NCBI GenBank assembly: GCA_963706575.1
Contig: CAVPNL010000001.1
Coordinates: 1 to 64,000, forward strand
From: an uncultured delta proteobacterium
GTDB taxonomy: Bacteria > Desulfobacterota > Desulfobacteria > Desulfobacterales > JAHEIW01
Length of the DNA stretch: 64,000 bases
Direction: 5' to 3'
A program made the position numbers and the translations under genes. Below are positions 1 to 15,296 of this stretch, in pieces (positions within the stretch are counted from its first letter, which is position 1; every line of letters starts with the position of its first letter). The notes under the pieces were generated by a model. The model worked only from the letters and a program-made list of their open reading frames with translations, did not search any database and was not told where the DNA came from.

Positions 1-16
1 CTTTGATATGTTGGAG

Positions 17-30
17 CTGTACGACATAAA
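17..30. repeat. Left terminal inverted repeat of the dual-recombinase element
   Basis: Perfect 14-bp inverse of 2111-2124; a second 11-bp inverted pair CTGTTTTTTCT (33-43) / AGAAAAAACAG (2060-2070) lies subterminally. Confidence 0.9.
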
Positions 31-70
31 GTCTGTTTTTTCTATTAATATTAATTAGTTAGCTTCCATT

Positions 71-991
71 TTAATTAATCAAAATTTCTTCTTTGTCAAG
101 TCTTTTGTTTCCGACCGGGCTGTGGCGCTCGATCACTTTATCCATTGCCTGGTAGTAATCCCTTCGCACTTTCTGGTTCGACACACGGCAATACCGCTCG
201 GTTGTTGTGATGTAGGCGTGGCCCAAAAGGTCCTGGATGGTCACTAAATCCGCATCGGCATTGAGCATCTGGGTGGCCATGGTGTGGCGCAGCTGGTGGC
301 AGGTGACCTTAAAGCCGGCCTTTTTCGAGTAGTATTTCATACGGTGCTGGATGCCGCGAACGTTGAGCGGTTGGCCTCTAAAGCGGCCCTTGTTGACCAA
401 AAAAAGCCTTTTGGCCCGGGAGAAAGGCCTGACCTTCAGATAGGCCAAAAGCGCCTGATAGGCATCTTTGCTTAAATAAACCATCCGTTCTTTGGCGCCC
501 TTGCCATGGTAGACAAACACCTGGGCGCGTTTTAAATCCACAGAGGCAAGAGTCAACTTGGCCACCTCTTGCACCCTAAGGCCGCAGCGCAGCATCAGCT
601 TGAAGATGGCCAAATCCCTTGGATCATCGATCTGTGCAAAAAGCGTCCGCACCTGCTCATCTCGCAAAAAGCGCGGCAGTGGCTTGGACATGCGCAGTGT
701 ATCTCCGAGTTTCACCGGATTTTGCATCTTAAGTTGCTCCTCACAGATCAGGTAGTCATAGAAGCCGCGGATGCTGTCCAGGTAGCAGTTGATGGTCTTG
801 GGTTTCAGGCGCTTGGCCAACAGATCATCGATAAAGCCCACCAGCTTTTGGTGGGTTACCTTATCGATGGGCACATCCAGCCAAATGACAAACTGCTTCA
901 GTGTGCTCATGTAATTTCTGATGGTGTATTTAGAGAAGTTGCGCCTTTTTAACGATCTACGGTAGTTGATAATCGAGTCGGTAATGCCCAT
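71..991 (-). CDS. Tyrosine-type recombinase/integrase (XerC/D-like), second gene of pair
   Basis: Catalytic motifs RCGLRVQE, HGKG, HQLRH, LLGH, TERY intact; N-terminal SAM-like domain; ATG at 991 preceded by GGAG. Confidence 0.93.
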   Translation of the reverse strand: MGITDSIINYRRSLKRRNFSKYTIRNYMSTLKQFVIWLDVPIDKVTHQKLVGFIDDLLAKRLKPKTINCYLDSIRGFYDYLICEEQLKMQNPVKLGDTLRMSKPLPRFLRDEQVRTLFAQIDDPRDLAIFKLMLRCGLRVQEVAKLTLASVDLKRAQVFVYHGKGAKERMVYLSKDAYQALLAYLKVRPFSRAKRLFLVNKGRFRGQPLNVRGIQHRMKYYSKKAGFKVTCHQLRHTMATQMLNADADLVTIQDLLGHAYITTTERYCRVSNQKVRRDYYQAMDKVIERHSPVGNKRLDKEEILIN

Positions 992-2036
992 TGATCTCTC
1001 CTGCTTCAATGATGGTCATCGCCTGGTAATAAGCCTTGCGACGCGTGTTGTCGGTTAGCCGCGCATATCGGCGCGTCATCTCAATGCTTTTGTGACCCAA
1101 AAGCTCCTGCAGACATTGCAGCGGCATACCGGCATTTAACAGCTCACTGGCGTATGTGTGACGCAGGCAGTGAAGCGTGTAGCCCTTGTGGGCCAGACCG
1201 GTTTTGTCTATATAGCGTTTGAACATCGCACGGGCCGCTTGGTAGCAAAGCGGTCCAACATCATAGCCATAAAAGATAAATTTGCTCTGATATTTTCTTG
1301 TCTTTAACCATTTTTCCAAGGTGCCCACCGCATCAGCGCTAAGATAGACCACCCGGCCCACCCGATTTTTATGTGCTTCAAAGATCTGAACCAGTTGCTC
1401 GCGCAGATTGATATCCTTAACCCTGGTGCTTAAAAGCTCGCCGATACGCATGCCGGTGCGAAGAAGCGTTAGTATCAGCGCCCGATCCCGAGGCTTTTCT
1501 ATTGCCGCCAACAGCTGCTTAATATCCTCCGGATCAATGGCCCGCGGCAGGGCCTGGGGCACCCTGATGCGAAGCTTACGCTTGATCACATCCGCGCTGA
1601 TAACCTCGTGCTCAACTAAAAAATTTAAAAACGCATACAATCCCTTTAGCCGTCCATCCACCGAGTTTGGCGCCATACCACGATCTTGCTCATGTTCAAC
1701 AAAAGCGCTGATATGCTCTGGACCTGCTGCCGCCAACTGCTGACCGCCGCTTTGCTTAAAAAACTCTAAAAATAGCACGATAGTGGTTCCGCTGCTGCGA
1801 ATGGTGCTGGGCCGGCAGTTGTGCCGTAGCTGCCGGCAAAGGTAATCGCGCACCATATCGCTGCCACACAACCCTTCAGCGGATATTCGCCGCAGGGTGC
1901 GCTCGATCTGTTCATTAGATACATGATAGGCGGGGCGAAGAGATATTTTGGGAAAAATTGAAAGTTGAATCGCTTTGGGCTGGATCGCTGTGGGGCTGTA
2001 TGTGCTTTTTCCTGCAGACACATGCTCGAGGTTCAT
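957..2036 (-). CDS. Tyrosine-type recombinase/integrase, first gene of pair
   Basis: Motifs RTGMRIGE, HCLRH, LLGH, TRRY intact; AGGAGG RBS upstream of ATG 2036 (GTG 2039 alternative); overlaps downstream recombinase by 35 nt. Confidence 0.93.
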   Translation of the reverse strand: MNLEHVSAGKSTYSPTAIQPKAIQLSIFPKISLRPAYHVSNEQIERTLRRISAEGLCGSDMVRDYLCRQLRHNCRPSTIRSSGTTIVLFLEFFKQSGGQQLAAAGPEHISAFVEHEQDRGMAPNSVDGRLKGLYAFLNFLVEHEVISADVIKRKLRIRVPQALPRAIDPEDIKQLLAAIEKPRDRALILTLLRTGMRIGELLSTRVKDINLREQLVQIFEAHKNRVGRVVYLSADAVGTLEKWLKTRKYQSKFIFYGYDVGPLCYQAARAMFKRYIDKTGLAHKGYTLHCLRHTYASELLNAGMPLQCLQELLGHKSIEMTRRYARLTDNTRRKAYYQAMTIIEAGEINGHYRLDYQLP

Positions 2037-2074
2037 CACTACCTCCTTTCGCTTTTTGCAGAAAAAACAGGTAG

Positions 2075-2103
2075 ATAATGACCTCGATCGACTGTTTAGT
2101 CAA
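2075..2103 (-). promoter_or_regulatory. Putative sigma70 promoter for the recombinase pair
   Basis: Minus strand TTGACT-17 nt-CATTAT just inside the right IR. Confidence 0.45.
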
Positions 2104-2110
2104 TTATCAT

Positions 2111-2124
2111 TTTATGTCGTACAG
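2111..2124. repeat. Right terminal inverted repeat of the dual-recombinase element
   Basis: TTTATGTCGTACAG followed by GTTGGAG. Confidence 0.9.
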
Positions 2125-2482
2125 GTTGGAGTAATCGCAACTTTTGAACTGAAACTTGATACCACAAGATGTTGGATATGGCCAAAATAATTGAAAGCGT
2201 GGATTCAAAATGACAAACGACGCTTTCTAATTGATTGGTTTGAGTGAACATCGATAGCCGTAAAACTTCAGATTTATATAAATAAAACATACATTATGTA
2301 TTGTTGACTTTTTCAGCTTAGATTGGATTTATAAAAGATAATTAATACTAATTCGAGCCGGAGTACCTGAGGCTACACCTGTGTACATTCTAAATAATCT
2401 TCTTTGTCCTTGTTTAGGTTTTCCCTGACTTTTGATTGATTACCTACAATCGCTCTAAGCAATGGCTGACGGATACTTAAAG

Positions 2483-3658
2483 TTAACGGGCCTTTTCAAG
2501 ATTACTCGTAATAACGCTCAGAAGATCATTGATAAGCAACAGGAGATAGAACTCCTTTTGCTGCTCACGGTTACTAATTAGTCCAATACTTACACCGTAT
2601 TCAGGTAAGTACCAAATAAACGCAAAGTAACCAAGCGCGTTACCAGCATGTCCCCAAATTTCTAAGCCGTTGAAAAAACGAGGTGTATATCTCGTGACTC
2701 CAAAGCCATACCCGGCAAGGATAGGGCTACCATGCACGGGTGAATGAAAATCAAGCATTTGGTCGAGAGATCCCTTTTTGAGTACTCTACCCTCGTGAAA
2801 TAGAGCATGGGTCCACTTTGCCAGATCTTCTGAAGTTGAAAAAACTCCGCCGGCGGCCCAAAATAAGCTATAAAGAGCTGTTCTTGGGAAGACTGAAAAA
2901 TCGTCAAGAACTTTATCCCCATCGAGGTCAATCCAGCCGTGGGCAATATTTTCGGGAAGCACTTCCTCAACGGCAAAAAAAGTGTTGTCGAGATCCAGAG
3001 GATTCCAAAAGCGATTCCTGAGTTCAGTGGATAACTTTGATCCGGTTGCTTTATTGATAATCATTCCAAGCAGAATGTAGCCGGTGTTGGAATAGTGCCA
3101 GCCTGTCCCTTTGGGGAAATGTGGTTTGCGCACCAAGGTTATTAGTACCTCTTTGGGAGTCCAGAATCTCCCCGGGTCTTTAAGAATTGGGCGAATAGCT
3201 GAGGGGCCTTGAAGACTGTAGAGGCCACTGGTGTGGTTAAGTAGCTGTCGGATGGTAATTGTGTTGTCAATGTTTGGATAGTCCGGGAGCCATTTATGGA
3301 GCGGGTCATCCAAAGCGAGCAGGCCCTCTTCCACCAGTCTGAGAGTTAGCGCAGCCACGAAGTTCTTTGTAATGCTGCCAGCATCAAACACTGTATCCGG
3401 CTTTATTGGAGTTGTATCATGAGACACGCCACTTACGCCGACCCACGGTTTGTATCCTGGGACAATTACAGCGACTGAAATCCCCTTTCCGTTGTACTTT
3501 TTAAGACCATTAACCAGTACTTCTTGCATCTTCTTGGTAAATGGCAGTTCGGGTTGAGACTTTGGCTTTGCTGATACCGCAGGACTAACGGAGAATGCTG
3601 TCAAAGCCAAAACGGTACTCAACAACAAAACTCGTGTTAAAAGCTTATTGAAAGACAT
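2483..3658 (-). CDS. Secreted serine hydrolase, beta-lactamase/D-Ala-D-Ala carboxypeptidase family
   Basis: Signal peptide; GSITK (SxxK), LLNHTSG, HYSN, GHAG motifs. Confidence 0.9.
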   Translation of the reverse strand: MSFNKLLTRVLLLSTVLALTAFSVSPAVSAKPKSQPELPFTKKMQEVLVNGLKKYNGKGISVAVIVPGYKPWVGVSGVSHDTTPIKPDTVFDAGSITKNFVAALTLRLVEEGLLALDDPLHKWLPDYPNIDNTITIRQLLNHTSGLYSLQGPSAIRPILKDPGRFWTPKEVLITLVRKPHFPKGTGWHYSNTGYILLGMIINKATGSKLSTELRNRFWNPLDLDNTFFAVEEVLPENIAHGWIDLDGDKVLDDFSVFPRTALYSLFWAAGGVFSTSEDLAKWTHALFHEGRVLKKGSLDQMLDFHSPVHGSPILAGYGFGVTRYTPRFFNGLEIWGHAGNALGYFAFIWYLPEYGVSIGLISNREQQKEFYLLLLINDLLSVITSNLEKAR

Positions 3659-3927
3659 ATCTGTACCTCTTTATTGAAAAATATCAATAAATTGTTCAGA
3701 GTCAGCCTCAGAATTTAAAGAAACTTGTACCAACTGAAATATCCTAAAATTCCAGAATACTAATGCTATTGTTCAATATAGGGGTCAGTACAGAAACGAG
3801 CAATGCTTGCCGCTGTCTGCACTGATAACTGTCAAAAAAATAATGCAGCTTGCGGTCGATAGTCTTCAGACAGAAGAAATAAGGCTGGCACAACATCTGG
3901 TGGTCGTTCTTTTATGTTAAAATTACG

Positions 3928-3944
3928 GATACATTGAGAGTATC
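3928..3944 (+). repeat. Putative recombination site GATAC-ATTGAGA-GTATC
   Basis: Perfect 5-bp inverted arms around a 7-bp core that recurs in the same orientation at 4285, 6843, 7708, 10586, 10887, 12665. Confidence 0.65.
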
Positions 3945-4004
3945 ACCAAAACAAGGAACTTGTGATATTATCCCCATTTTCTGAGAACAGTATCTCAATA
4001 ATAG

Positions 4005-4169
4005 TTAACTTTTTTTTGAAGTTACCGTCTGAAAGGATGAAATTTGTTGCTTCAATTTTTTGGCTTTACACTTTGGGCAACTGTATTTTTTCTTTTCATA
4101 TTCGGAAATAGAAAGGACTATGCTAAAGGATTTTTTACATTTTTCACAGTAAAACTCATATGTGGGCAT
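4005..4169 (-). CDS. FmdB-family zinc ribbon protein
   Basis: MPTYEFYCEKC...CPKC; GGAGG RBS before ATG 4169. Confidence 0.88.
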   Translation of the reverse strand: MPTYEFYCEKCKKSFSIVLSISEYEKKKYSCPKCKAKKLKQQISSFQTVTSKKS

Positions 4170-4279
4170 GTTACACCTCCTTTTTTCAGGTGTTATACCA
4201 CCCAATAATGATGGTGATACGACATTTATGCTTGTATCAAATTATTTAATCACTGGCGAGCTCGCTACAATCACATGGT

Positions 4280-4333
4280 GATTAATTGAGAGAAACACAA
4301 CTATCGCAATTTTGCAGATACGTTCTGGATATA
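4280..4333 (+). repeat. Composite intergenic repeat (ATTGAGA core + GTTCTGG core), homologous to 12660-12723
   Basis: GATTAATTGAGAGAAACACAACTATC...CAGATACGTTCTGGATATA vs GATACATTGAGAAACAAACAACTATC...CAGATAGAATCTGGTTACA. Confidence 0.6.
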
Positions 4334-4378
4334 TGAACCTCACCATGCAACCAACCGTCTTTTCTAAGTTTTGTCATC

Positions 4379-4443
4379 TGTGATTAAAATCGAATATCGC
4401 AGGAATTTTCAGAATTGATATCTACCGAATTGTTGGAGTTATC
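4379..4443 (+). repeat. 65-bp composite repeat (AAATCGA core + GTTGGAG core), copy 1
   Basis: 56/65 identical by manual count to 8534-8598. Confidence 0.8.
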
Positions 4444-4453
4444 AAAGGATTCC

Positions 4454-5536
4454 CTACCTATTTAATAAATAGGATGCTAAATCATCAAATAGAAATGAAT
4501 CAACAGACCTATGCCGTTTAAAAGAGACAGATGGTTCTGGGTCAGGTTCTGCTTGAGTGACAAGTACAGCACTCACATCAGGTATAATTGCTATTCGCTG
4601 TCCTCCGTGGCCCATTGCAAATGGAATATCAATATGGTTTTCTATTCGTTTAATCCACCAAAGGAAGCCATAGCCATATGATTTATTCCAGCCTGAATAA
4701 TAAGTACCTATCATTCCGGTTCTTTCAATTATTGATGACTTAATCCATTCTGATGGTACGACCTGACTCCCATTAAAGAGTCCATTGTTCAAATAAAGAG
4801 TACCAAAGTTTACCATGTCTTGAGCTTTCAGAGACAATCCCCAACCGCCAATACAATATCCCTTTGGATCTTTTTCCCATTTGACTTTAGTAATGCCAAG
4901 GGGTGAAAATAGAACAGATTTTGCATAATCAAAGGTACTCATGCCGGTAGCCTTGGTGATCGTCGCTGATAAGAGATGAGTGTTAAAACTATTGTAGCTG
5001 AATTTTTTTCCAGGGGCTGCTCTAAACGGAAAATGAAGGATATGCTCTACCCAATCAGTCGATTTGTATAATTGCTGATAGGCCTGAGCGGTTTCCTCAA
5101 TGTTGAAACCTGATTTCATAGTTATCAGGTGCCTAATTCTAAGATCATATATTTTAGGATCTAACTCATCGGTGATGTATTCAGGGAAAAAATCAATGAT
5201 CTTTTGCTCTATGCTGTTTATATACCCATCCTTTATTGCGATACCCACAATGGCAGACAAAACACTTTTCGAAGCAGATCGGATATCATGAATTTGATCG
5301 GGACCGCCGCCATTGATATACTTTTCGATTATCAATTCATCATTTTTCAAAACTATCAGACTTTTTAAATAGGGCATTTCATCAGTCTTACGCAATATTT
5401 TGGAAAGATTGTCGGATTTAGTTACAATTTTGCTTAATGATTTGTCCGTTTCTGTTTGTCCGATGGTGCAACAATAAAGTGTGAAGCTAAAGGTAGTCAT
5501 TAAGAGAAAAAAAAGTTCTAAATTTAGCTTTTTCAT
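4454..5536 (-). CDS. Serine hydrolase, beta-lactamase class C-like (6-aminohexanoate-dimer hydrolase-like)
   Basis: RSASK (SxxK), HLITMKSG, FSYNS, YGYGFLWW, AMGHGGQ. Confidence 0.9.
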   Translation of the reverse strand: MKKLNLELFFLLMTTFSFTLYCCTIGQTETDKSLSKIVTKSDNLSKILRKTDEMPYLKSLIVLKNDELIIEKYINGGGPDQIHDIRSASKSVLSAIVGIAIKDGYINSIEQKIIDFFPEYITDELDPKIYDLRIRHLITMKSGFNIEETAQAYQQLYKSTDWVEHILHFPFRAAPGKKFSYNSFNTHLLSATITKATGMSTFDYAKSVLFSPLGITKVKWEKDPKGYCIGGWGLSLKAQDMVNFGTLYLNNGLFNGSQVVPSEWIKSSIIERTGMIGTYYSGWNKSYGYGFLWWIKRIENHIDIPFAMGHGGQRIAIIPDVSAVLVTQAEPDPEPSVSFKRHRSVDSFLFDDLASYLLNR

Positions 5537-5550
5537 CCTACCTGCCCAAT

Positions 5551-6810
5551 TTAGATAATTGAAGGCAATTCGATCTTTCCTGAATAGTATTGCTTTATTT
5601 TTTCAGATATTTTTAATAATTGCGTCTGTGGATGTATGTGTGGGACTTCTGCGGTTGAAACTAACAAAATTGCGCTTTTTTTATTTAGATCCGCAACAAC
5701 TTGGGCATTAAAAGCGAATCCTCTGCCGCCGTGCCATATTAATTTGTGTCCATTCTCATCGGTTTTGGTAAACCACCCCAGCGCATAATTAAAACCAAGG
5801 TCGATATCAATATCCCAAGTCGCCAAATCAGGAGGCGTATGTAACTTTTGCAATGAGCTTGGTTTTATCAAACTACCTTGGTTTACCGGGTCTGAATCCA
5901 GATGCATTAAAATGGATTTTGCCCAATCCGCCATTGTCATGTGCATATGACCAGTAGGTGATAAAAATTTTGGACAATTCGCTTGGTAAGCCACAAAGGA
6001 TTTTGTTGACTTATCCCAGTAATGTCCCAAAGGTTGCTTGTTTGGCTCTAAAGCTGTCGGCGGTCCATACCCTGCGGAGGAAATAGATAAAGGCCTAAAT
6101 ATTTTTTCTGTCCAAAGATCCTCAATTGCTCTTCCTGTGGCTTTCTCCATCATTGCTCCTGTCAGAATATAGCCACTGTTGGAGTAATGGACCATTTGAC
6201 CTGGTGGTGCAAATAATTGATGTTGAACCGTCTTTTCTACATACTGGCATCGTAATTGTTCGGGTGCCGACCCGCGCGCTTCATCGAACTCATAGTCAAT
6301 CAGCCAGGTTGTTTTACCACCTTTGAAATTTTTAGGTAGTCCGGCGCGATGAGACAGTAATTGATATAATGTGATATGTTCATATTCTGGAAGCATTTCC
6401 AGGTCAGGAAATACGTTGCGAATTGTTGTCTGCCAACTCAAAACGCCTTCATCCACCAATACTGCAGCCAGGCTGGCAGTAAATGATTTTGTACAAGATC
6501 CGATTAGAAATTTATCATTTACTGTTAACCAATTATCCGTTCCAATTTCTCGGACGCCTACAGCAGCAGCGGAATGAAGTTTACCATCAACGATGATAGC
6601 TGCTGCCAATCCGGGTAGTCTTTCTTCAAGCCTGATAGAATTAAGCAATTCTGCAAGATCAGTATCACCAGATTCCTTTGTGACAGGTGCAGGAATAGCA
6701 TCATAAGGTGGTGACTTTTCGCATGCCAACATAAATACAATACATACAAATCCCAATAGAATCGAAGTTAATCGCCTATTAATATGGATGGCCATAAAAA
6801 TTTTTTTCAT
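5551..6810 (-). CDS. Serine hydrolase, beta-lactamase family, probable lipoprotein
   Basis: MLAC lipobox-like; GSCTK, LLSHRAG, HYSN, WHGG. Confidence 0.9.
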   Translation of the reverse strand: MKKIFMAIHINRRLTSILLGFVCIVFMLACEKSPPYDAIPAPVTKESGDTDLAELLNSIRLEERLPGLAAAIIVDGKLHSAAAVGVREIGTDNWLTVNDKFLIGSCTKSFTASLAAVLVDEGVLSWQTTIRNVFPDLEMLPEYEHITLYQLLSHRAGLPKNFKGGKTTWLIDYEFDEARGSAPEQLRCQYVEKTVQHQLFAPPGQMVHYSNSGYILTGAMMEKATGRAIEDLWTEKIFRPLSISSAGYGPPTALEPNKQPLGHYWDKSTKSFVAYQANCPKFLSPTGHMHMTMADWAKSILMHLDSDPVNQGSLIKPSSLQKLHTPPDLATWDIDIDLGFNYALGWFTKTDENGHKLIWHGGRGFAFNAQVVADLNKKSAILLVSTAEVPHIHPQTQLLKISEKIKQYYSGKIELPSII

Positions 6811-6837
6811 AGTATTTCAGCCCGGATCCGGAATGCA

Positions 6838-6984
6838 GATACATTGAGAATACATGAAATATCGTAAAATTGCAGATATCGCAATCTGATATCATAGTCT
6901 TTTAGGGATGGTAAGTTCTGCATTGATGTTAGAGATATCGGCAGTTTTTTGGTTTGAAAATATTTTAGATTTCCATGAGATATC
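6838..6984 (+). repeat. Composite intergenic repeat (ATTGAGA, GTTAGAG and CCATGAG cores)
   Basis: GATAC-ATTGAGA-ATACA (6838), TTGAT-GTTAGAG-ATATC (6923), GATTT-CCATGAG-ATATC (6968); aligns with 7703-7800 and 10882-10977. Confidence 0.6.
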
Positions 6985-7107
6985 TGCAACTATTTTCGAC
7001 TGTCCCTTCACAGACAGAATCTAATAAAAATCTATTAAATCGGATACCACAACATAAAGGGGATAAGCAAAACTTCAGAATGTTAAAATTGTTATAGACA
7101 ATACTGG

Positions 7108-7560
7108 TTATGTATTTATGTCCTCAATACGTTTTATGTTCTCAACAATCTCTGCCGGAAGTGAAGTCTTTTGGTTTTTCCTGTAATCGAAGCAGACAAT
7201 CATACCGTCGCCTTCCGCCGCCACACAATTGTGTTTTTTGCTGACAACTCGATAGAGCATTAAAAAACTGTCCTCCTCTATATCGGTCGAACGTGCGCCG
7301 ATCTGAACCATGTCTGGGAACGATAAGGCTTTTTTAAATCGGCAGCTTGTTTTCGACAAAATGGGCCCGACACCGATGTTTTCCTTTAATTTTATAAACT
7401 CTATTTTTTCAAAATAGGCGATACGAGCACTTTCGAAATACCGGAAATATACAATATTGTTAACATGGCCAAATGCATCCATTTCACCCCAGGCAACCGG
7501 CACTTCAATGGTAACAGGAAAATTGGTTAAAAAAGATTTACTAGTGTTATCCGCTATCAT
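7108..7560 (-). CDS. Acyl-CoA thioesterase (4HBT/YbgC hot-dog family)
   Basis: VAWGEMDAFGHVNNIVYFRYFESAR. Confidence 0.92.
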   Translation of the reverse strand: MIADNTSKSFLTNFPVTIEVPVAWGEMDAFGHVNNIVYFRYFESARIAYFEKIEFIKLKENIGVGPILSKTSCRFKKALSFPDMVQIGARSTDIEEDSFLMLYRVVSKKHNCVAAEGDGMIVCFDYRKNQKTSLPAEIVENIKRIEDINT

Positions 7561-7702
7561 TTCAAATCCTCAAGTCTAAAGTTAACAAGCTATGTGTAAA
7601 ATGGAATCACAAAAGAAATTTGAAAAAGTAATGTGAAGCCCCATTGCTCATGAACAAATCGATGGGCTTTTTCAAATTAGATTCACGATTCTAATAACTA
7701 CT

Positions 7703-7800
7703 GATATATTGAGAATACCTGAAAAAGACCAAAAGAGCAGATATGCGAATGTATCACAAGTTTTTAAAGGATTCAAAAGTGCTGCTATGTTGAAGAGTAA
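7703..7800 (+). repeat. ~100-bp composite repeat (ATTGAGA core ... GTTGAAG core)
   Basis: 7703-7766 is 56/64 identical by manual count to 10882-10945. Confidence 0.8.
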
Positions 7801-7805
7801 TCTGG

Positions 7806-8342
7806 TTACGCCTTTGAAGCTCCGAATCCCCCTGCCAACCAAAAAAACAAAGCGAAAATGACGGTCTGAACGATCCAGCCGATGATACAGACACCGACTG
7901 CTCGCCAAGTACTTTTATAATCAAGCGCCTGCCTGACAGCAATGACCATCGCCACCAGCATCCAGATACCAACGATGAAATTAAGAATAGCCCCCAACAT
8001 GGGGATAATTGCCAAAATACGCAGGACTCCCGGAGAACTGGAGAATCCGATGGTGCGGAGCAATTCCCCATAATCTGCTCTTGTTTGTGGTTCAGGTAAC
8101 AGTCTGGTTCCAATAAAATATGTAAGAAACGCCCAAATAAACCATCCCAGCAAGGCAGCTATGGTCCCGAAAATAAGTCCATTTATCCCTGTAGCGCTGA
8201 TAGTTCCGATTCCTGCAGCAACACTGGAGAGAATGACCACTCCCATGGCCTGCCCCATGGCCCCCTTATCCGCTTCGACCTCTTCATAAAGGGCTACATC
8301 CAGCTTTGCTGCCCTTAACATCCGATCTGTAAATGATGCCAT
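7806..8342 (-). CDS. YIP1-family membrane protein
   Basis: MASFTDRMLRAAKLDVALYEEVEAD..., five hydrophobic segments, AVRQALD. Confidence 0.8.
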   Translation of the reverse strand: MASFTDRMLRAAKLDVALYEEVEADKGAMGQAMGVVILSSVAAGIGTISATGINGLIFGTIAALLGWFIWAFLTYFIGTRLLPEPQTRADYGELLRTIGFSSSPGVLRILAIIPMLGAILNFIVGIWMLVAMVIAVRQALDYKSTWRAVGVCIIGWIVQTVIFALFFWLAGGFGASKA

Positions 8343-8533
8343 GATTGCCCCCTTTTGCAATTCAGATTAAAATCTCAAGATTTCATTTTAAATCTTTTTG
8401 CATGTTAACATGGTCTTGTCAAAGCGAAAGTCCCATTCTTGTCATAGAAAAAATCCCCCTCCAATAAGGGGAAAATGCGGCTCTAAGGCGATAAAAAGGG
8501 CAAACCCATAGCCTCAGATTCACCCTTTTGAGT

Positions 8534-8598
8534 TGTGATTAAAATTGAATATCCAAACAATTTTCGGAATTGATATCTACCGATATGTTGGAGGTATC
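8534..8598 (+). repeat. 65-bp composite repeat (AAATTGA core + GTTGGAG core), copy 2
   Basis: GATTA-AAATTGA-ATATC and GATAT-GTTGGAG-GTATC; homologous to 4379-4443 and to the site split by the recombinase element. Confidence 0.8.
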
Positions 8599-8930
8599 GC
8601 AGGTTTTAGGCTGCAATGAAACCTGTGTTAAATAGCAGATCACACAACTATCGCTTGCTTTCAGTACCCCCTACATCTTGTGGTGGCTTAAAAACGAAAA
8701 GCGCGGTATCGAAGCTGTTTCCACGCTTTTTATCACTAATTGCACCCGAGCTGACGCGAAAAGGTGACAATGGATTGGTAGAGATAAAATAAGAAACACA
8801 TTAACGTGAGCCCGTGCTGAGACCCTGATCCATTATAGAAGCAGACATTTCAGTACTTCTCCTTTTTTCACATCCGAAATATTGCGTCTTCAATTGTACG
8901 TGTAACGGGCAAATTCATGTTTTAGAAGTA

Positions 8931-10559
8931 TTATTTTTTCAACTCTTCTTTAACGGCACTCGCTAATGTTTCCAAAATAAAGGGTTTCTTTATATATTTC
9001 CCCGCTCCCAGTTCCTGAGCAGCTTTGACGTCTTTTGTCTCGGCAAACCCGCTGGCAATAATCGCTTTTTGGTTAGGATGTAATTCAATGATCCTTTCAT
9101 ATGTTTCGCGACCGTTCATTCCCGGAAACATAATCATATCAAGCACGATCAAATCTACCGAATTAGTCTTTAGATATCTAACCGCCTCCTCACCGCTAGA
9201 AACAGCGTTAGCCGAATAACCAAGTTTAATCAGCAACGCACATGTGATTTCCCTTTGAAGCTCCTCGTCATCGACCACAAGAATCGTCTCATCATTTCCA
9301 GCGTAATGTTCCCATGATGCCTGCTCCACAGTAGCAGCCACTTCATCTCTGGTTATAGGATAGTATAGTTCAAAGATAGTTCCGTCTTCATTACTCAATA
9401 CATTTACGTAACCACCATGATCTTGAACGGTGTTCCATACAACCGATAAGCCTAATCCCGTACCACTTCGACCCATAATCTTTTTACTATAAAAAGGCTC
9501 AAAAATTCTATCCAGATCTTCTGCAGATAATCCTGAACCATCGTCGTAAACTGTTAGCACGGCATATTCACCCTGGCGCACGTCCTCGTACCCTTTTAAG
9601 GGTTTATCCAAGTACCGATTCGTTGTCGATATGACAACGGTACCACTGTCTTGAATTGCTTGGGTCGCATTCGTTACTAAGTTTAATAAACTCTTATTTA
9701 TATGAGATGATGAACATTCTGTATTCAAGAGGTTGGGATCAAGTTGAAATTTGAAATTTATAGTGGGATTAACTGTTTCGAGTTTTTTGTGTTCAGCAGA
9801 ACGCATATATCCCTTGATTATGGAGTTTATGTTTAAGATTTCTTTCCCTGTTGCCGCACCTCTGGCTACAGCTAATAAATCAGAGACGATAGCAGCAGCG
9901 CGATTGCCGGAATCCCTGATAATTCCAATTGGTTTTCGTAATGGGCTATTTTTGGGTAAATCCATTAAAATCAGCTCAGGATAACCTACAATCCCTGATA
10001 AAATGTTATTCAAGTCATGCGCAATGCCTGCAGCCATAAACCCGATGGCTTCCATCCGTTTGGCTCTAGAGAGTTTTTGTTCGCTTTCTCCTAATGCCTC
10101 CTCTGCCCGCTTGCGCTTGGTAATGTCACGGATGTTGCATTGAATCACCTTCTTGTTTTTGACCATATAGACATTACTGACGAACTCTACGGCAATATGG
10201 CGCCCGTCCTCTGTTTCAAGCGGTAAATGCTCGTAGCGAATATATTCTTTTTTCTGTAACTCCCGAAAAGCTGATTGGCTTGCCTCAATGTCTTTGAAAG
10301 GACCGATTTCCCAAAGTTCCTTACCTATGAATGTTTCGTTAGCATAATCCAGCATTCCTAATAGAAATGGATTGACGTCGGTTATCTTCCCGGTGTCGGC
10401 ATCAAGGATTAATATTCCATCTTGAGCTGTTTCAAAAAGTCGTCGGTAGCGACTTTCGGACTCTTCCAGCGCCTCCTCTGCCCGCTTGCGCTCAAAAGCA
10501 TCTTTCTTTAATTCCTGAATCCTCTGTTCCAATCCTTCATAGGTCGGTTTTTTAATCAT
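8931..10559 (-). CDS. PAS-domain hybrid sensor histidine kinase/response regulator
   Basis: PAS domain; AHDLNN H-box; N/G boxes; receiver ILVVDD...LDMIM; GGAGGA RBS before ATG 10559. Confidence 0.93.
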   Translation of the reverse strand: MIKKPTYEGLEQRIQELKKDAFERKRAEEALEESESRYRRLFETAQDGILILDADTGKITDVNPFLLGMLDYANETFIGKELWEIGPFKDIEASQSAFRELQKKEYIRYEHLPLETEDGRHIAVEFVSNVYMVKNKKVIQCNIRDITKRKRAEEALGESEQKLSRAKRMEAIGFMAAGIAHDLNNILSGIVGYPELILMDLPKNSPLRKPIGIIRDSGNRAAAIVSDLLAVARGAATGKEILNINSIIKGYMRSAEHKKLETVNPTINFKFQLDPNLLNTECSSSHINKSLLNLVTNATQAIQDSGTVVISTTNRYLDKPLKGYEDVRQGEYAVLTVYDDGSGLSAEDLDRIFEPFYSKKIMGRSGTGLGLSVVWNTVQDHGGYVNVLSNEDGTIFELYYPITRDEVAATVEQASWEHYAGNDETILVVDDEELQREITCALLIKLGYSANAVSSGEEAVRYLKTNSVDLIVLDMIMFPGMNGRETYERIIELHPNQKAIIASGFAETKDVKAAQELGAGKYIKKPFILETLASAVKEELKK

Positions 10560-10585
10560 TAAAAAATCCTCCAACTACCAGAAAT

Positions 10586-10630
10586 ATTGAGAATTGCGAC
10601 AAGCTTACGTTTAAAACCCTCTTCTGCCAT
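10586..10630 (-). pseudogene. 5' stub of an adenylate/guanylate-cyclase-type gene (MAEEGFKRKLVAIL), cut at an ATTGAGA core
   Basis: Manual translation from ATG 10630 matches the recalled (K/R)RKLAAILSAD N-terminus of class III cyclase proteins; similarity stops at the core 10586-10592. Confidence 0.6.
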
Positions 10631-10881
10631 AGTGGCATCCGCCTCTTTTAGGTTTCAAACAGAGGAGCTTAGCAGGTGGATTATTCGAAGGAGAGCAGCA
10701 AATCAGATGTAAAATACAGCTCAATGGTGAAAATAGAGAACCGTACCGGGTTAGGTGGAAGAGGGGAATCAGAAATAGTTTATATGTATTTATACCAAAT
10801 TAAAGGGATTTAGTCAATCATAATCAAGGATTCCGGCAGGTTGTGATACCTTACCAGAAAACCAAATATAACTGAACCTGT

Positions 10882-10977
10882 GATTTATTGAGAATACCTG
10901 AAAAGTACCAAAAGTGCAGATATGCGAAACTATCACAGTTTTTTAGTAATTAAAAATGCTAATATCTTGGAGATATT
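10882..10977 (+). repeat. ~100-bp composite repeat (ATTGAGA core ... CTTGGAG core)
   Basis: Homologous to 7703-7800 and 6838-6939. Confidence 0.8.
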
Positions 10978-11047
10978 TCAAGACATAGGGCTCTTGGAAA
11001 ATTTTTGCCTTGGCAGCATATTATCACTACTATGAAAAAAAATCAGA

Positions 11048-11422
11048 TTATTGCTTCGGGGCCAGCATTAGCATAATTATTGATTTGCCGGACTGACCCG
11101 TACTGATGTTAACAACCGTATTGTTCGATCCTTTTTCACCTATAAGACCTGAAAGCCCCTGTTGCTTGGTTTCGGCCGAGATTGTCCAGCCGTTAGCTGC
11201 CAAGTTCTTTTTATAAAACTCGAGTATCTTTTCCAGGTTGTCGCCAGATTCCATCCCAACGATTATATTTCCAGGAACCTGCACGGTCTGGGTGATTGTG
11301 GCATCGGGATAAGGTGCAGAGACTTCCATCATCTCTTGGGGATATACCATCCCAGACAAGGCCACATTCATAGAGAGGGCAAAAAACACTAAAACAGCAC
11401 AAATTATGATATTTTTTGACAT
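11048..11422 (-). CDS. Hypothetical exported protein
   Basis: Signal-peptide-like N-terminus; GGAGG RBS; YPDA...FYKKNL..NGW motif seen in small periplasmic proteins. Confidence 0.75.
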   Translation of the reverse strand: MSKNIIICAVLVFFALSMNVALSGMVYPQEMMEVSAPYPDATITQTVQVPGNIIVGMESGDNLEKILEFYKKNLAANGWTISAETKQQGLSGLIGEKGSNNTVVNISTGQSGKSIIMLMLAPKQ

Positions 11423-11677
11423 ATTGACCTCCTATTCGAAGTTAATTGTTTGCCCTTATTCCGCCTGCCAACGTTGCGGGCTTCAACTGACATTCCTCAG
11501 TTTTATGGCTTTAAAAGCCTTGCTACACATCGAGAGATTTCTGAAAGATCGGTTTAATGTCAAGGATCGGTATGCGCTCCAGCGCCTCCGGTGGACGCAC
11601 CCTGTACCGCTTTCATGCCCTTGAATTTGCATAGACCAATCGTAAAAAAGCCAAGTACAATCTTATTCGGGCCTGAA

Positions 11678-12634
11678 CTAACTCTCAAAGGGGTCCTTCA
11701 GCTTGGCATCCCAGGCGGTTACGATGTTTTGTTTGCGCAAATTTACCTGAAGTTGAAAAACATCGGGTCTTGCGTAATGGCCTGGCGTGTCGAGATCGTA
11801 CTTTCCTTCCGGGATCTTGTTCAGATCCAGGTCTGCACGAAGAATGGTAGGGCCGTTATAATCGGGACCTGCCAAAACTTCTCCCAGGGGCCCCACGATA
11901 CAGCTGCCGCCGCGCATTAAAACGTTTTCAGGATTATCCCCTTGAATCGCGTCGAATTTCTCCGGACAATCCTTCCGTGTCAGATATTGACAACTACTCA
12001 GCACAAAACAACGACCCTCCAGGGCAATATGCTGCATGGAAGGCAACCAGACATCTCGATCGTCTGCTGTCGGAGCGCAGTAAATCTCAATGCCCTGAGA
12101 ATACATGTGCATCCGAAGCAATGGCATATAGTTTTCCCAACAAATAACTGCACCGATACGCCCGATTGGTGTGTCGACCACTTGCATTGTCGATCCATCG
12201 CCAAAGCCCCATACCAATCTTTCCATAGCTGTCGGCATCAGTTTTCGATGCTTGCCCAGTAGCTTGCCTCCCGGAGAAAAAAAGCATACCGTGCAATACA
12301 AAGTGCCCAATTCTCTTTCAATCACCCCGATTACCAGATAGATCTTATTTTCTTTGGCGATCGTTCCCAAAAGGTCTGTGGCCTGGCTCGGAATTTCAAC
12401 AGCGCTTTCAAAATACCGGCGGAAATCTTCTCGGCCCTCGGGAAAGCGCATTCCAATGCGAGCCCCAAAATCCAGTCCCTTGGGATAGGCAGAAACAAAT
12501 GCCTCTGGAAATAGCACCAATTCGGCCTCTTGACTCGCAGCCTCTTTTACTAAGTCTCGGACCTTCTCGATTGTGGCCTCTCGATCGAATACAATCGGAT
12601 TATCTTGTACCACTGCAGCACGAACGATACTCAT
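11678..12634 (-). CDS. Nitrilase (carbon-nitrogen hydrolase family)
   Basis: E-K-C triad: LFPEAF, HRKLMPT, ICWENY; C-terminal GHYARPDVF. Confidence 0.92.
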   Translation of the reverse strand: MSIVRAAVVQDNPIVFDREATIEKVRDLVKEAASQEAELVLFPEAFVSAYPKGLDFGARIGMRFPEGREDFRRYFESAVEIPSQATDLLGTIAKENKIYLVIGVIERELGTLYCTVCFFSPGGKLLGKHRKLMPTAMERLVWGFGDGSTMQVVDTPIGRIGAVICWENYMPLLRMHMYSQGIEIYCAPTADDRDVWLPSMQHIALEGRCFVLSSCQYLTRKDCPEKFDAIQGDNPENVLMRGGSCIVGPLGEVLAGPDYNGPTILRADLDLNKIPEGKYDLDTPGHYARPDVFQLQVNLRKQNIVTAWDAKLKDPFES

Positions 12635-12659
12635 TTTGATCTCCTATCGAAATGTTAAA

Positions 12660-12723
12660 GATACATTGAGAAACAAACAACTATCATTTTAACCGAGAGT
12701 ATTTCAGATAGAATCTGGTTACA
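12660..12723 (+). repeat. Right-most composite site of the array (ATTGAGA and AATCTGG cores)
   Basis: GATAC-ATTGAGA and GATAG-AATCTGG-TTAC; homologous to 4280-4333. Confidence 0.6.
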
Positions 12724-12910
12724 TGATATCCCCGGGGGAATCAACCGGTAATTCAGATCCAGGTGAACTCAGGAGTCTAAAGGTTTGATGCTTGGATGCG
12801 GGTTTCAGGGGTATGGATATTGAAAGGCAGTCAAAGGAGAAAAAAAGATAGGAAATCTGGAACAGGATCGATGTTCGTCGGACCGACAGGCTATTTGTGC
12901 GCTTTTGCTG

Positions 12911-13219
12911 TTAAGGCTCAACGGGATAATGGTATTTGACACCAACGCCAAATGAATATTGGGAATCTTGCGCAAGCAATTTCTGCCGCCATCTAACCTG
13001 AGCGCGATACATGTCCGGACTGGAATCATAAGGGGATTTTTCTATTCCGATGTAAATTTCAGTACCGGGCAGCGGCGCATAATCGGATTCAAAATACATG
13101 CCGCCGCGACTGTAATTGTGCATTTTCGCATCGAAGTGTGCTCCGGCAGGAAAATTTTCGAGCAGGATGTTGGCCGTATGCTTCAAACGCGTGGCGTCGC
13201 GTTGCTCAGAATGAGCCAT
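12911..13219 (-). CDS. PilZ domain protein
   Basis: EQRDATR (RxxxR) and NYSRGG (D/NxSxxG) c-di-GMP motifs. Confidence 0.85.
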   Translation of the reverse strand: MAHSEQRDATRLKHTANILLENFPAGAHFDAKMHNYSRGGMYFESDYAPLPGTEIYIGIEKSPYDSSPDMYRAQVRWRQKLLAQDSQYSFGVGVKYHYPVEP

Positions 13220-13408
13220 TTATACCCCCTTCATAGACCTGTAGGCAGAAATAAACGTGTTGCGTCAGGAGAATGGTGTCAGTTGGCACCGAAGATTATA
13301 GCGGCATAAATAAACCAATGCCGCTGCAATGTCAAAGAAAAAAACAGGCCCGGGAAAAATAAATTTATTTTTAATAAGTTTAAATAGTTATGTTAATTTC
13401 GACTCATG

Positions 13409-13891
13409 TTATTGTTTATAGCCGATTTTTCTCAGAAATTCTTTGCGGACGTTGATATCCGCTTCATTTTCGATGCCTTTAGATTTAAATCCGTCAATAA
13501 CACCCAGGATTCCCCGTCCCAGATCAGTTTCAGCCACAATCACCTCCACTGGATTTGCCGTGGCGCAAAAGATGCGGCAGACTTCAGGCACTGCTTTAAT
13601 GGCGTTTAAGACGTTGATTGGAAAACAATCTTTCATGAATACAATAAAACTGTGGCCGGCTGAGAGATTGAGGGCGTTTTTCTTAGCCAGTTCCAAAAGC
13701 TCATCATCCGTACCTGCATGCCGGATCAGGCATTTATCAGAGGCTTCACAGAAGGCCAGAGCAAACTTTGCCATGGGGACGGTTGTTACCATAATCTCGT
13801 AAATATCTTCAACGGTTTTGATGAAGTGGGACTGGCCTAAGATAAAGTTGAGTTCACCCGGGTTTTCGATTTTAATGGTTGTGATTTCCAT
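13409..13891 (-). CDS. Adenosine-specific kinase family protein (DUF355)
   Basis: [38 protein letters not shown]. Confidence 0.85.
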
Positions 13892-14068
13892 AAGACCCTC
13901 CATACGACATATTTTCTGGCAATGCGCCTATAATCTGTCTCAATCCGCCTCCGGCGGACTAAGTGCCCATAGCTTAGATATGTAATCCCGCTTCAGCGAG
14001 ACCATGAACCCTGAACCACATTCCTGAGATAGGTTGTAGTGAAAAAAACCTTTTAAGTGAAAAAAACC

Positions 14069-14097
14069 TTGACCGGTTGAAATGAGTCTGGTATCTA
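14069..14097 (+). promoter_or_regulatory. Putative sigma70 promoter overlapped by a 15-bp direct repeat
   Basis: TTGACC-17-TATCTA; AGTGAAAAAAACCTT at 14038-14052 and 14056-14070. Confidence 0.4.
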
Positions 14098-14169
14098 ATT
14101 GTGTCTATAAGCCTGTGATACTTTGTGGCATTTAATCAAGCTGCAAACCCTTTCAGGCTTTACTTCTTT

Positions 14170-14240
14170 AAGCCCGGATTGCATCCGAAAATGTGTGCGA
14201 GTAAATGTAGCCTCCCACTCTTGCAGTCCGGGCTTTTTTA
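14170..14240 (+). terminator. Long stem-loop with U-tract (possible 3' end of an sRNA)
   Basis: AAGCCCGGATTGCA pairs with TGCAGTCCGGGCTT, followed by TTTT on the + strand only. Confidence 0.5.
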
Positions 14241-14288
14241 CTTTCACCCCGGCACCCAGTCCGCGGGAGGCGGACTGCGAATGCCTCA

Positions 14289-15296
14289 TTATCCGCCGAT
14301 GGCGCGCATTTGTCCACAAATACGGGCTGGATTTTTGGCAACCAGGTTGTGATCCGAAGGCTTATGCCTTACGGTCTTGATAAAAATATCCGCGAGCTGT
14401 TCGTCCGAACAGCCCTGTCTGACGGCTTCTTTTAAATCTTCTTGATGATCGGACAACAGACAGGGCCTTAGCTGGCCGCTTGCGGTCAGCCTGAGCCGGT
14501 TGCATTTATTACAGAAATGCTGGCTGAGTGCCGGGATAAACCCGACTTCTCCGATAGCATTTTCGTATTTATAACGCCGGGCAGGTCCGTCGTGTTCGTC
14601 TTCCTGAACGGTTGCCAGATTTCCCAGGTCGCTGATACGGCTCTTTATTTCCGGGGCCAGCAAAAGGGAATCGGGATTAAAATCGGACCGGCCGATGGGC
14701 ATGTATTCGATAAAGCGGATGTGAAACGGATATTGAAATGATAGCCGCGCCATCTCGACAAACTCTTCTTCATTGATGCCCTTCAGGGCCACAATATTCA
14801 ATTTAATCGGATAAAATCCCATCTGATGGGCTTTTTCAATTCCCTGCCAGACGCGATCAAATTCATCGTAACCGGTTATTTCATGATATTTTGCCGGGTT
14901 CAACGTATCCAGACTGATATTGATTCTGGATATGCCGGCAGCCTGAATTTTTTCGAGGTTGTCCTTCAATAAAACTCCGTTGGTGGTCAAAGACACGTCT
15001 TTAAGGCCCTCTGTGGCGGTCAGTTCGTGCAAAAATTCATAAACACCTTTGCGCACGAGCGGTTCGCCACCGGTAACCCGAACCTTTGATATGCCAAGGC
15101 GCGTCGCAACCCGCACCACCCGCAAAATTTCTTCGTAGGTTAATATTTCAGCGTGAGAGAGTTTCGGAATTAAATCCTGCGGCTCACAGTAGCGGCATTG
15201 CAGGTTGCAGCGGTCGGTAATGGATATGCGTAAATAATTCAAATGACGGTTGAAATTATCGACAAGTTTAGAAGTGTTCACGGTTTGGTTTCCCAT
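14289..15296 (-). CDS. moaA: GTP 3',8-cyclase MoaA
   Basis: YLRISITDRCNLQCRYC radical SAM motif, CNKCNRLRLT...PCL, C-terminal MRAIGG. Confidence 0.96.
   Translation of the reverse strand: MGNQTVNTSKLVDNFNRHLNYLRISITDRCNLQCRYCEPQDLIPKLSHAEILTYEEILRVVRVATRLGISKVRVTGGEPLVRKGVYEFLHELTATEGLKDVSLTTNGVLLKDNLEKIQAAGISRINISLDTLNPAKYHEITGYDEFDRVWQGIEKAHQMGFYPIKLNIVALKGINEEEFVEMARLSFQYPFHIRFIEYMPIGRSDFNPDSLLLAPEIKSRISDLGNLATVQEDEHDGPARRYKYENAIGEVGFIPALSQHFCNKCNRLRLTASGQLRPCLLSDHQEDLKEAVRQGCSDEQLADIFIKTVRHKPSDHNLVAKNPARICGQMRAIGG

Follow-up and report, generated by a model that had tools for sequence, protein, structure and literature searches.

A candidate gene-cassette array with tripartite, 7-nt-centred junctions and an inserted two-recombinase module in a Desulfobacterales genome

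The window analysed here is the first 64 kb of contig C1 (CAVPNL010000001.1) of an uncultured Desulfobacterales assembly (GCA_963706575.1, hereafter G000; 5.67 Mb in 25 contigs, 92% complete). At its left end lies a block of genes separated by short recurring sites, for which a prediction made from the letters alone (the original prediction) had proposed an integron-like, attC-independent gene-cassette array built on core sites of 7 bp. All of the genes in 2483–12634 lie on the minus strand. Family matches identified a serine hydrolase of the beta-lactamase family (PF00144; 2483–3658), an FmdB-type zinc ribbon (4005–4205), two further PF00144 hydrolases (4454–5536 and 5551–6810), a 4HBT-type thioesterase (7108–7560), a Yip1-domain protein (7806–8360), a hybrid PAS histidine kinase with a receiver domain (8931–10574) and a carbon-nitrogen hydrolase (11678–12634), and a protein of 124 amino acids (aa) encoded at 11048–11422 had no family match. 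The strand assignment of the original prediction was thus correct, but its description of nine unrelated genes separated by sites was not fully borne out, as three are PF00144 paralogues and two of these form a two-gene candidate cassette (4454–6810, minus strand) with no intervening site and a 3' boundary at the core at 4432. To the left of the block, at 71–2039, are two minus-strand tyrosine recombinase genes, and to its right is a PilZ/DUF355/MoaA anchor that is conserved in the genus.

The sequence shared by the intergenic spacers was defined by repeat finding and by iterated nhmmer searches. The core sites, which had been proposed as four free classes, are better described from these alignments as ordered subsites X, Y and Z of a single tripartite junction of approximately 96 nucleotides (nt). 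Each junction comprises three imperfect palindromes with a 7-nt centre, in which X reads GATAY-ATTGAGA-RTAYC, Y reads TGTGATAT-N7-ATATCACA with a variable centre, and Z reads AAAA-N5-GATAT-GTTGGAG-ATATCRCAGGTTTT, and the consensus of 34 copies is GATAY-ATTGAGA-atAcCtgAAa...cAAaatTgCA-GATAT-N7-TATCACA-A.tttTt..aGg.ttcaaAA.t.ct-GATAT-GTTGGAG. Conservation differs between subsites: at least 80% of copies retain the seven central letters of X and Z, the arms of which are variable, whereas in Y the arms TGTGATAT and ATATCACA are conserved and the centre varies. Likeness among junction copies ends at the Z core, and the DNA to its right still fits the arm ATATCRCAGGTTTT, the mirror of the left arm AAAA-N5-GATAT. 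The inverted arms exceed the 5 nt originally assigned to them.

Within the window, complete X-Y-Z junctions lie on the plus strand at 6836–6948 (cores 6843–6849, 6880–6886 and 6928–6934, the last being GTTAGAG), 7701–7812 (cores 7708–7714, 7745–7751 and 7789–7795, the last being GTTGAAG) and 10880–10986 (cores 10887–10893, 10924–10930 and 10966–10972, the last being CTTGGAG). A four-subsite form at 4278–4452 (plus) carries X at 4285–4291, Y at 4322–4328, a second Y at 4387–4393 and Z at 4432–4438. In a second junction type, a terminator-like hairpin takes the place of X; the example at 8492–8608 (plus) has the hairpin at 8492–8527, a Y core at 8542–8548, a Z core at 8587–8593 and the right arm GTATCGCAGGTTTT. 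The last junction (12659–12730, plus) has X and Y only, with cores at 12665–12671 and 12712–12718, and is followed by the conserved anchor. Homology to the anchor starts at approximately 12776–12811, 50–80 nt past the last subsite, and is too diverged for the right border to be placed at base level.

All 21 of the originally listed core positions carry the words given for them. ATTGAGA was present at 3933, 4285, 6843, 7708, 10586, 10887 and 12665 (with ATCGAGA at 11529), GTTGGAG at 10, 2125, 4432 and 8587 in addition to the three variants above, AAATCGA and AAATTGA at 4387 and 8542, and words ending in CTGG (GTTCTGG, ATACTGG and twice AATCTGG) at 4322, 7101, 7799 and 12712. Of this last group, the words at 4322 and 12712 are Y sites; those at 7101 and 7799 were dropped, as they are probably a stop-codon region and the right arm of the Z site at 7789, respectively. 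Enrichment was assessed in 2125–12730 against 300 first-order Markov simulations. ATTGAGA occurred seven times on the plus and twice on the minus strand (simulated mean 1.08, maximum 4), GTTGGAG four times and once (mean 0.40, maximum 3), and the combined motif GATWN-RTTGRRR seven times and never (mean 0.19, maximum 3), in agreement with the single orientation proposed originally; the remaining 51 kb of the window held only two matches to the combined motif. The strict form GATWN-N7-NWATC matched 16 times in the window (6.25 +/- 2.81 expected; none of 100 shuffles reached 16), with ten matches in the array region, five of which fall inside open reading frames (ORFs) and are probably due to chance. 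As had been proposed, only some copies have clear arms: the strict form is fitted by four listed sites alone (3933, 4387, 8542 and 8587), the remainder being degenerate.

Across G000, 49 junction copies were found in 21 loci, comprising four arrays with 6, 6, 10 and 4 copies and otherwise single or double copies, and none of the 49 lies within a long ORF. All junctions within one array share an orientation. The gene on the Z side is antiparallel to the junction in 43 of 48 cases, the gene on the X side in 41 of 47, and both in 36 of 46, so that the strand bias anticipated for these sites was recovered, but their confinement to a few variable loci was not, given the 21 loci and many single copies. 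An even spread over promoters, which had been named as the mark of a transcription-factor box, was not seen, because 41 of the 174 genome-wide matches to GATWN-RTTGRRR cluster within 300 nt of the 49 junction copies. The other G000 arrays carry hydrolases, regulators, a globin, an MreB-like protein, many proteins of no assigned function, insertion sequence (IS) fragments and a group II intron, and no further site-specific recombinase was found in their cargo. The MreB/Mbl-like gene is full length (PF06723, 476 bits; C4:294391–295452) and lies in the large array of contig C4, near a truncated globin gene, IS fragments and a group II intron reverse transcriptase.

Several segments recur elsewhere with breaks in homology at the cores. 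The zinc-ribbon unit (3933–4291, minus strand) extends from one ATTGAGA core to the next and is 98.656% identical over 372 nt to C1:174119–174490 in a second array, where it again runs from ATTGAGA to ATTGAGA, the flanks diverging at the core edges. Four copies of this unit were found in G000, all starting at an X core, the other two being at C1:177.5k and C4:305.9k, each followed by an X-type core. An excised zinc-ribbon unit would be expected to carry the joint GGTGATTA-ATTGAGA-GTATCACC, a near-perfect palindrome. The Yip1 unit (7789–8593, minus strand) extends from Z core to Z core and recurs in G005 (contig C161, 221–1032; 86% identity) with GTTGGAG at both ends (221 and 1026). In G013 its left break falls at ATTGGAA, and G001 and G011 have the gene without sites. 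For the two-gene PF00144 unit, the homology that begins at 4432 starts in G011 directly after a Z-type core, GTCGGAG, and in run X2 three contigs diverge after 4438, the final letter of the Z core. A non-coding unit of approximately 300 nt between two ATTGAGA cores (10586–10893, plus strand), with no ORF of at least 50 aa and no Rfam match, recurs upstream of other genes at C12:205976–206320 and C4:310773–311013 and in many genomes of the genus. The behaviour of the sites, including the recurrence elsewhere of units bounded by identical cores, agrees with the proposal of double-stranded tyrosine recombinase core sites with a 7-bp overlap.

The FmdB-family zinc-ribbon gene was always found in arrays in G000 (4005–4205, C1:174.2k, C1:177.6k and C4:306.0k) and recurs in several relatives. 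It may be merely a successful cassette, or an accessory factor of the system.

The left end of the window is occupied by a 2.1-kb two-recombinase module (17–2124, minus strand) with 12-nt inverted arms at 17–28 (CTGTACGACATA) and 2113–2124 (TATGTCGTACAG). Its only tyrosine recombinase genes encode P0002 (71–1009, minus; 312 aa) and P0001 (957–2039, minus; 360 aa, with an N-terminal extension of approximately 70 aa), both Xer-like, matching the whole length of the PF00589 domain with Xer as the best-scoring models, and both with the R, K, HxxR, H and Y residues readable in translation. The left junction of the module (1–16, plus) is a Z left arm cut by the contig start (CTTTGATAT) with the core GTTGGAG, and the right junction (2125–2146, plus) is the same core with the right arm TAATCGCAACTTTT, so that the insertion reads ...TGATAT-GTTGGAG-[12-nt arm ... 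12-nt arm]-GTTGGAG-TAATCGCA. The nine letters left of the module are a Z left arm, and the array continues past the contig start. Its left border was sought through the genes lying left of the anchor in G002, which were searched for in G000 and not found. The original prediction had suggested looking for a resident integrase to the left of the window; the recombinase pair instead lies within the window, as a mobile unit inserted in a junction. A platform with a single resident integrase and an attI site is not supported.

A second copy of the module, 99.44% identical over 2141 nt, lies on contig C12 in a different Z site between two genes (left junction C12:210389–210409), and in both copies the 12-nt arms have GTTGGAG outside each end. 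The module thus has its own 12-7-12 site and has been inserted by exchange within the 7-bp centre. The same module ends and centre occur in contigs of three other species, and the exact right junction of the module was found in 36 metagenome contigs, of which 32 were long enough for comparison and showed 29 distinct right flanks. The Z right arm ATATCRCAGGTTTT is fitted at 9 or more of its 14 positions by 15 of the 29 distinct flanks, compared with 0.4% of random 14-mers. Among 30 related module loci, approximately half, counted by eye, have a clear pair of terminal arms flanked by seven letters that are identical or almost so; in the remainder the longest inverted repeat is internal or none was found. 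The wider recombinase family is large, with 6363 protein clusters at E up to 1e-30 among 8000 candidates scored, a figure that includes ordinary Xer relatives, and the public names among the best 120 listed are generic XerD-type only. Other tyrosine recombinases in G000 are two Xer-like genes (C3:159.7k and C3:203.9k), a 267-aa gene on C18, a weak match in a 409-aa frame on C4 and two fragments.

Remnants of modules were also observed. A truncated third-lineage module with the core ATAGCCG lies at C18:89230–89720, approximately 100 nt from a junction, an isolated recombinase fragment lies at C12:228077–228343, and at C4:350430–350460 a single module arm adjoins GTTGGAG within a Z site.

Comparison of the anchor region across relatives supported the expectation that this locus varies between close genomes. 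Seven relatives (G002, G003, G007, G008, G012, G013 and G015) have a conserved plus-strand gene set left of PilZ without an array, G004 has two or three minus-strand genes there, and G014 has six different minus-strand genes, the sole feature in common with the window being a junction. Module lineages also differ in the core they carry. In G034, which belongs to a different family of the order, the module lineage is 47% identical with different arms; the reverse complement of ATTGAGA stands at both of its ends, within an X site that precedes a Y-like arm. In G027 and G015 the module core reads GTTGTAG or GTTGGAG. In G041 the junctions keep the Y site and the Z left arm with a Z core of ATAGCAG or a variant, and a module with ATAGCCG lies approximately 190 nt from one of them; G010, a member of the window's genus, also holds the ATAGCCG lineage. 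A Z pattern was compared across 41 genomes, in all of which together the reversed control pattern gave one match. Outside the window's family it occurred in 2 of 16 genomes, G027 and G034, and no other genome of the 16 has a module orthologue. The five genus members without GTTGGAG sites have left arms at control level only.

A possible explanation for these observations, considered somewhat probable, is that the region is part of a gene-cassette array joined by the tripartite junction, with X and Z acting as crossover sites. It builds on features that can be read directly in the DNA, namely the 7-nt centres of the three subsites, the loss of homology at the centres of X and Z, modules with the same 7 nt on both sides and a fixed polarity. 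The system is probably a real and undescribed variant of cassette shuffling by site-specific recombination, integron-like in outcome. Under this model, a tyrosine recombinase tetramer would pair two sites sharing an asymmetric 7-bp overlap, the centre setting both orientation and the choice of partner; direct repeats would allow excision of the intervening DNA as circles, which could re-enter at sites with the same centre. The one-way arrays would then follow, since recombination at an asymmetric overlap is expected to fix orientation. The cassettes would be moved by the module recombinase pair, P0001 and P0002 being the likeliest enzymes because the assembly holds few other tyrosine recombinases. 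The two may divide the sites between them, one recognising the arms of the module itself and the other those of GATAT type, and Y may be an accessory site bound by one recombinase or by an accessory factor. Expression may come from signals in the junction and from each cassette's own leader.

A broader proposal is offered more tentatively, as possible rather than probable. This would be a second cassette system independent of integrons, in which portable two-recombinase modules, each lineage with a 7-bp address (GTTGGAG or ATTGAGA) matching one junction subsite, exchange cassettes, non-coding units and the modules themselves among Desulfobacterales genomes. Literature searches, which did not extend to subscription journals, found no description of the junction family or of a cassette system of this kind.

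Several observations weigh against the cassette model. Of three zinc-ribbon loci examined in relatives, only that of G004 is edged by X-type sites, those of G014 and G020 having none, and the homology of the 124-aa gene in relatives does not break at cores. The circles or deletions joining identical cores that had been suggested as read-level support were not seen in Logan contigs of four runs, none of which contained more than 0.37 of the words, and no joint cleanly linked two identical cores. Candidate joints 4305>8577, 4320>8533 and 4320>8472 were rejected, as foreign or undetermined letters lie between the two sides and they look like piecewise matches of other junction copies; contig depth was uneven between cassettes, with 2421–3872 nearly uncovered, and was not counted as evidence. 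Many junctions are single copies between ordinary-looking genes, and the role of Y is unexplained by the model. In the genus the Z pattern occurs in 16 of 21 genomes and a module orthologue (E < 1e-90) in 4 of 21. Z sites occur with no module orthologue in G004, G007 (97% complete) and G023 (one contig), so that the modules may merely exploit the sites. The absence of a module is itself weak evidence, as modules often lie on contigs of approximately 2 kb and may drop out of binned genomes.

Some of these points would be expected if the junctions were ordinary intergenic repeats carrying promoter, operator or terminator signals, the modules selfish elements that land in the X and Z palindromes, and the arrays plain variable islands. 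Single-copy junctions and Z sites in genomes without a module are consistent with this, as are the terminator-like hairpin of the second junction type and a TTGAAT-17-TAnnnT match on the coding strand between Z and Y, read off the junction consensus. The gene-relative polarity is likewise that of a transcription signal, and promoter or terminator signals in the junction may explain it alone. A general scan, however, showed no excess of promoters (27 against 28.2 expected) or terminators (8 against 10.3 expected), and conservation in X and Z is higher in the 7-nt centres than in the arms, the opposite of a dimeric operator. Further, the identity of the zinc-ribbon copies drops from 98.7% to unrelated exactly at the cores with approximately 12 nt shared, which is too short for homologous exchange, and the Yip1 and PF00144 units break at Z too. 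This explanation is considered unlikely.

Movement of real cassettes by the host XerC and XerD (C3:159.7k and C3:203.9k), with the two-recombinase modules as fellow users of the sites, appears less likely again. Such movement by XerC/XerD has been proposed for dif modules and for elements that exploit Xer. Junctions do persist in genomes with Xer-level matches only, and Xer models are the best match for both module proteins, which may mean that the types of site are alike. The known Xer-dependent boundary site, pdif, is a 28-bp site with an 11-6-11 layout and a 6-nt centre. The subsites here depart from that layout, with centres of 7 nt and arms made of a GATAT block and a distal A-run (AAAA-N5-GATAT), and all junctions within an array are co-oriented direct repeats rather than alternating in orientation; two module lineages also carry exactly the X or Z centre. 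A search for the host's own dif site with a dif-type motif, allowing up to four mismatches, gave nothing convincing. In Acinetobacter plasmids, gene modules are bounded by pdif (XerC/XerD) sites (PMC6449649, PMC13141974), which resembles the present arrays in the short Xer-type boundary sites, the shuffling between replicons and the lack of a dedicated integrase adjoining the array. The Desulfobacterales arrays differ in being chromosomal, with tripartite junctions, direct sites and a dedicated mobile recombinase pair that shares the cores.

Resemblance to integrons is closer in outcome than in mechanism. In both, diverse cassettes, most of them with a single gene, lie in one-way arrays between recombination sites, at several loci of which some have no nearby recombinase gene, and the tyrosine recombinase chemistry of integrons would probably apply here too. 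Integrons require a single specialised integrase and sites made of folded single strands, attC being an imperfect hairpin of 55–140 nt with the inverse core and core at its ends. Scored against the IntI models NCBIfam TIGR02249 / NF011946 (cut-off 265 bits), P0002 reached 113 bits and P0001 75 bits, and no protein in the whole genome exceeded the cut-off. Thirteen single-strand folds of six spacers gave z values of +0.11 to -2.5 with small local stems only, so attC-like folding was rejected, in agreement with the attC-independence of the original prediction. Rfam gave no matches at E up to 0.1 in positions 1–14500. In place of IntI and one folded hairpin, each junction here has three short double-strand palindromes with 7-bp centres and lies upstream of its gene, and the candidate recombinases form a pair, carried by a unit whose own insertion is cassette-like. 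A classical integron array without integrase (CALIN) and with very divergent attC sites is highly improbable, as the co-oriented arrays of diverse small genes and the likeness of GTTGGAG to the GTTRRRY consensus core are outweighed by the missing IntI in window and genome, the weak folding without a long hairpin, X and Z being direct rather than inverted versions of one word, RTTGRRR, and the position of the junction 5' of its gene.

Other mobile elements share single features with the module. ICEHptfs and TnPZ elements use a single XerT recombinase. These Helicobacter pylori elements integrate at a conserved heptanucleotide motif (PMC4234485) and are comparable as tyrosine recombinase elements needing little beyond 7 nt for integration, but they are large conjugative elements and are not known to form cassette arrays or to have a junction element. 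Recombinase-in-trio (RIT) elements are small and encode Xer-like tyrosine recombinases only (10.1101/542381); they have three genes compared with two in the module, and the part of that source consulted describes no link to cassette arrays. No paper was found in the literature searched on IS-sized elements with two tyrosine recombinases, a description that the module at 17–2124 fits by its two adjacent genes, terminal inverted repeats and identical outer seven letters. Compared with such elements generally, the targets here are two defined subsites of a cassette junction, with different lineages using different subsites.

Two further repeats were observed in and near the array. The histidine kinase gene holds an internal 38-nt direct repeat (82% identity; 10080–10117 and 10455–10492). 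Beyond the array, between the DUF355 and moaA genes, a dispersed short repeat copy at 13926–14045 has related copies on many contigs of G000 and its relatives and resembles an abundant 31-nt repeat family, of which approximately 45 occurrences were seen.

To our knowledge, integrons alone among well-understood systems assemble single genes into arrays that are expressed and can be exchanged. If the system outlined here is real, the same end would be reached through ordinary double-strand core sites and a mobile recombinase pair, and the cassette-array solution would have evolved more than once. A recombinase family that is very abundant but has no name would thereby gain a function, and new pairs of site and enzyme with a 7-bp address would become available. 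Within the sediment sulfate reducers, the junction system would account for part of their variable gene content.

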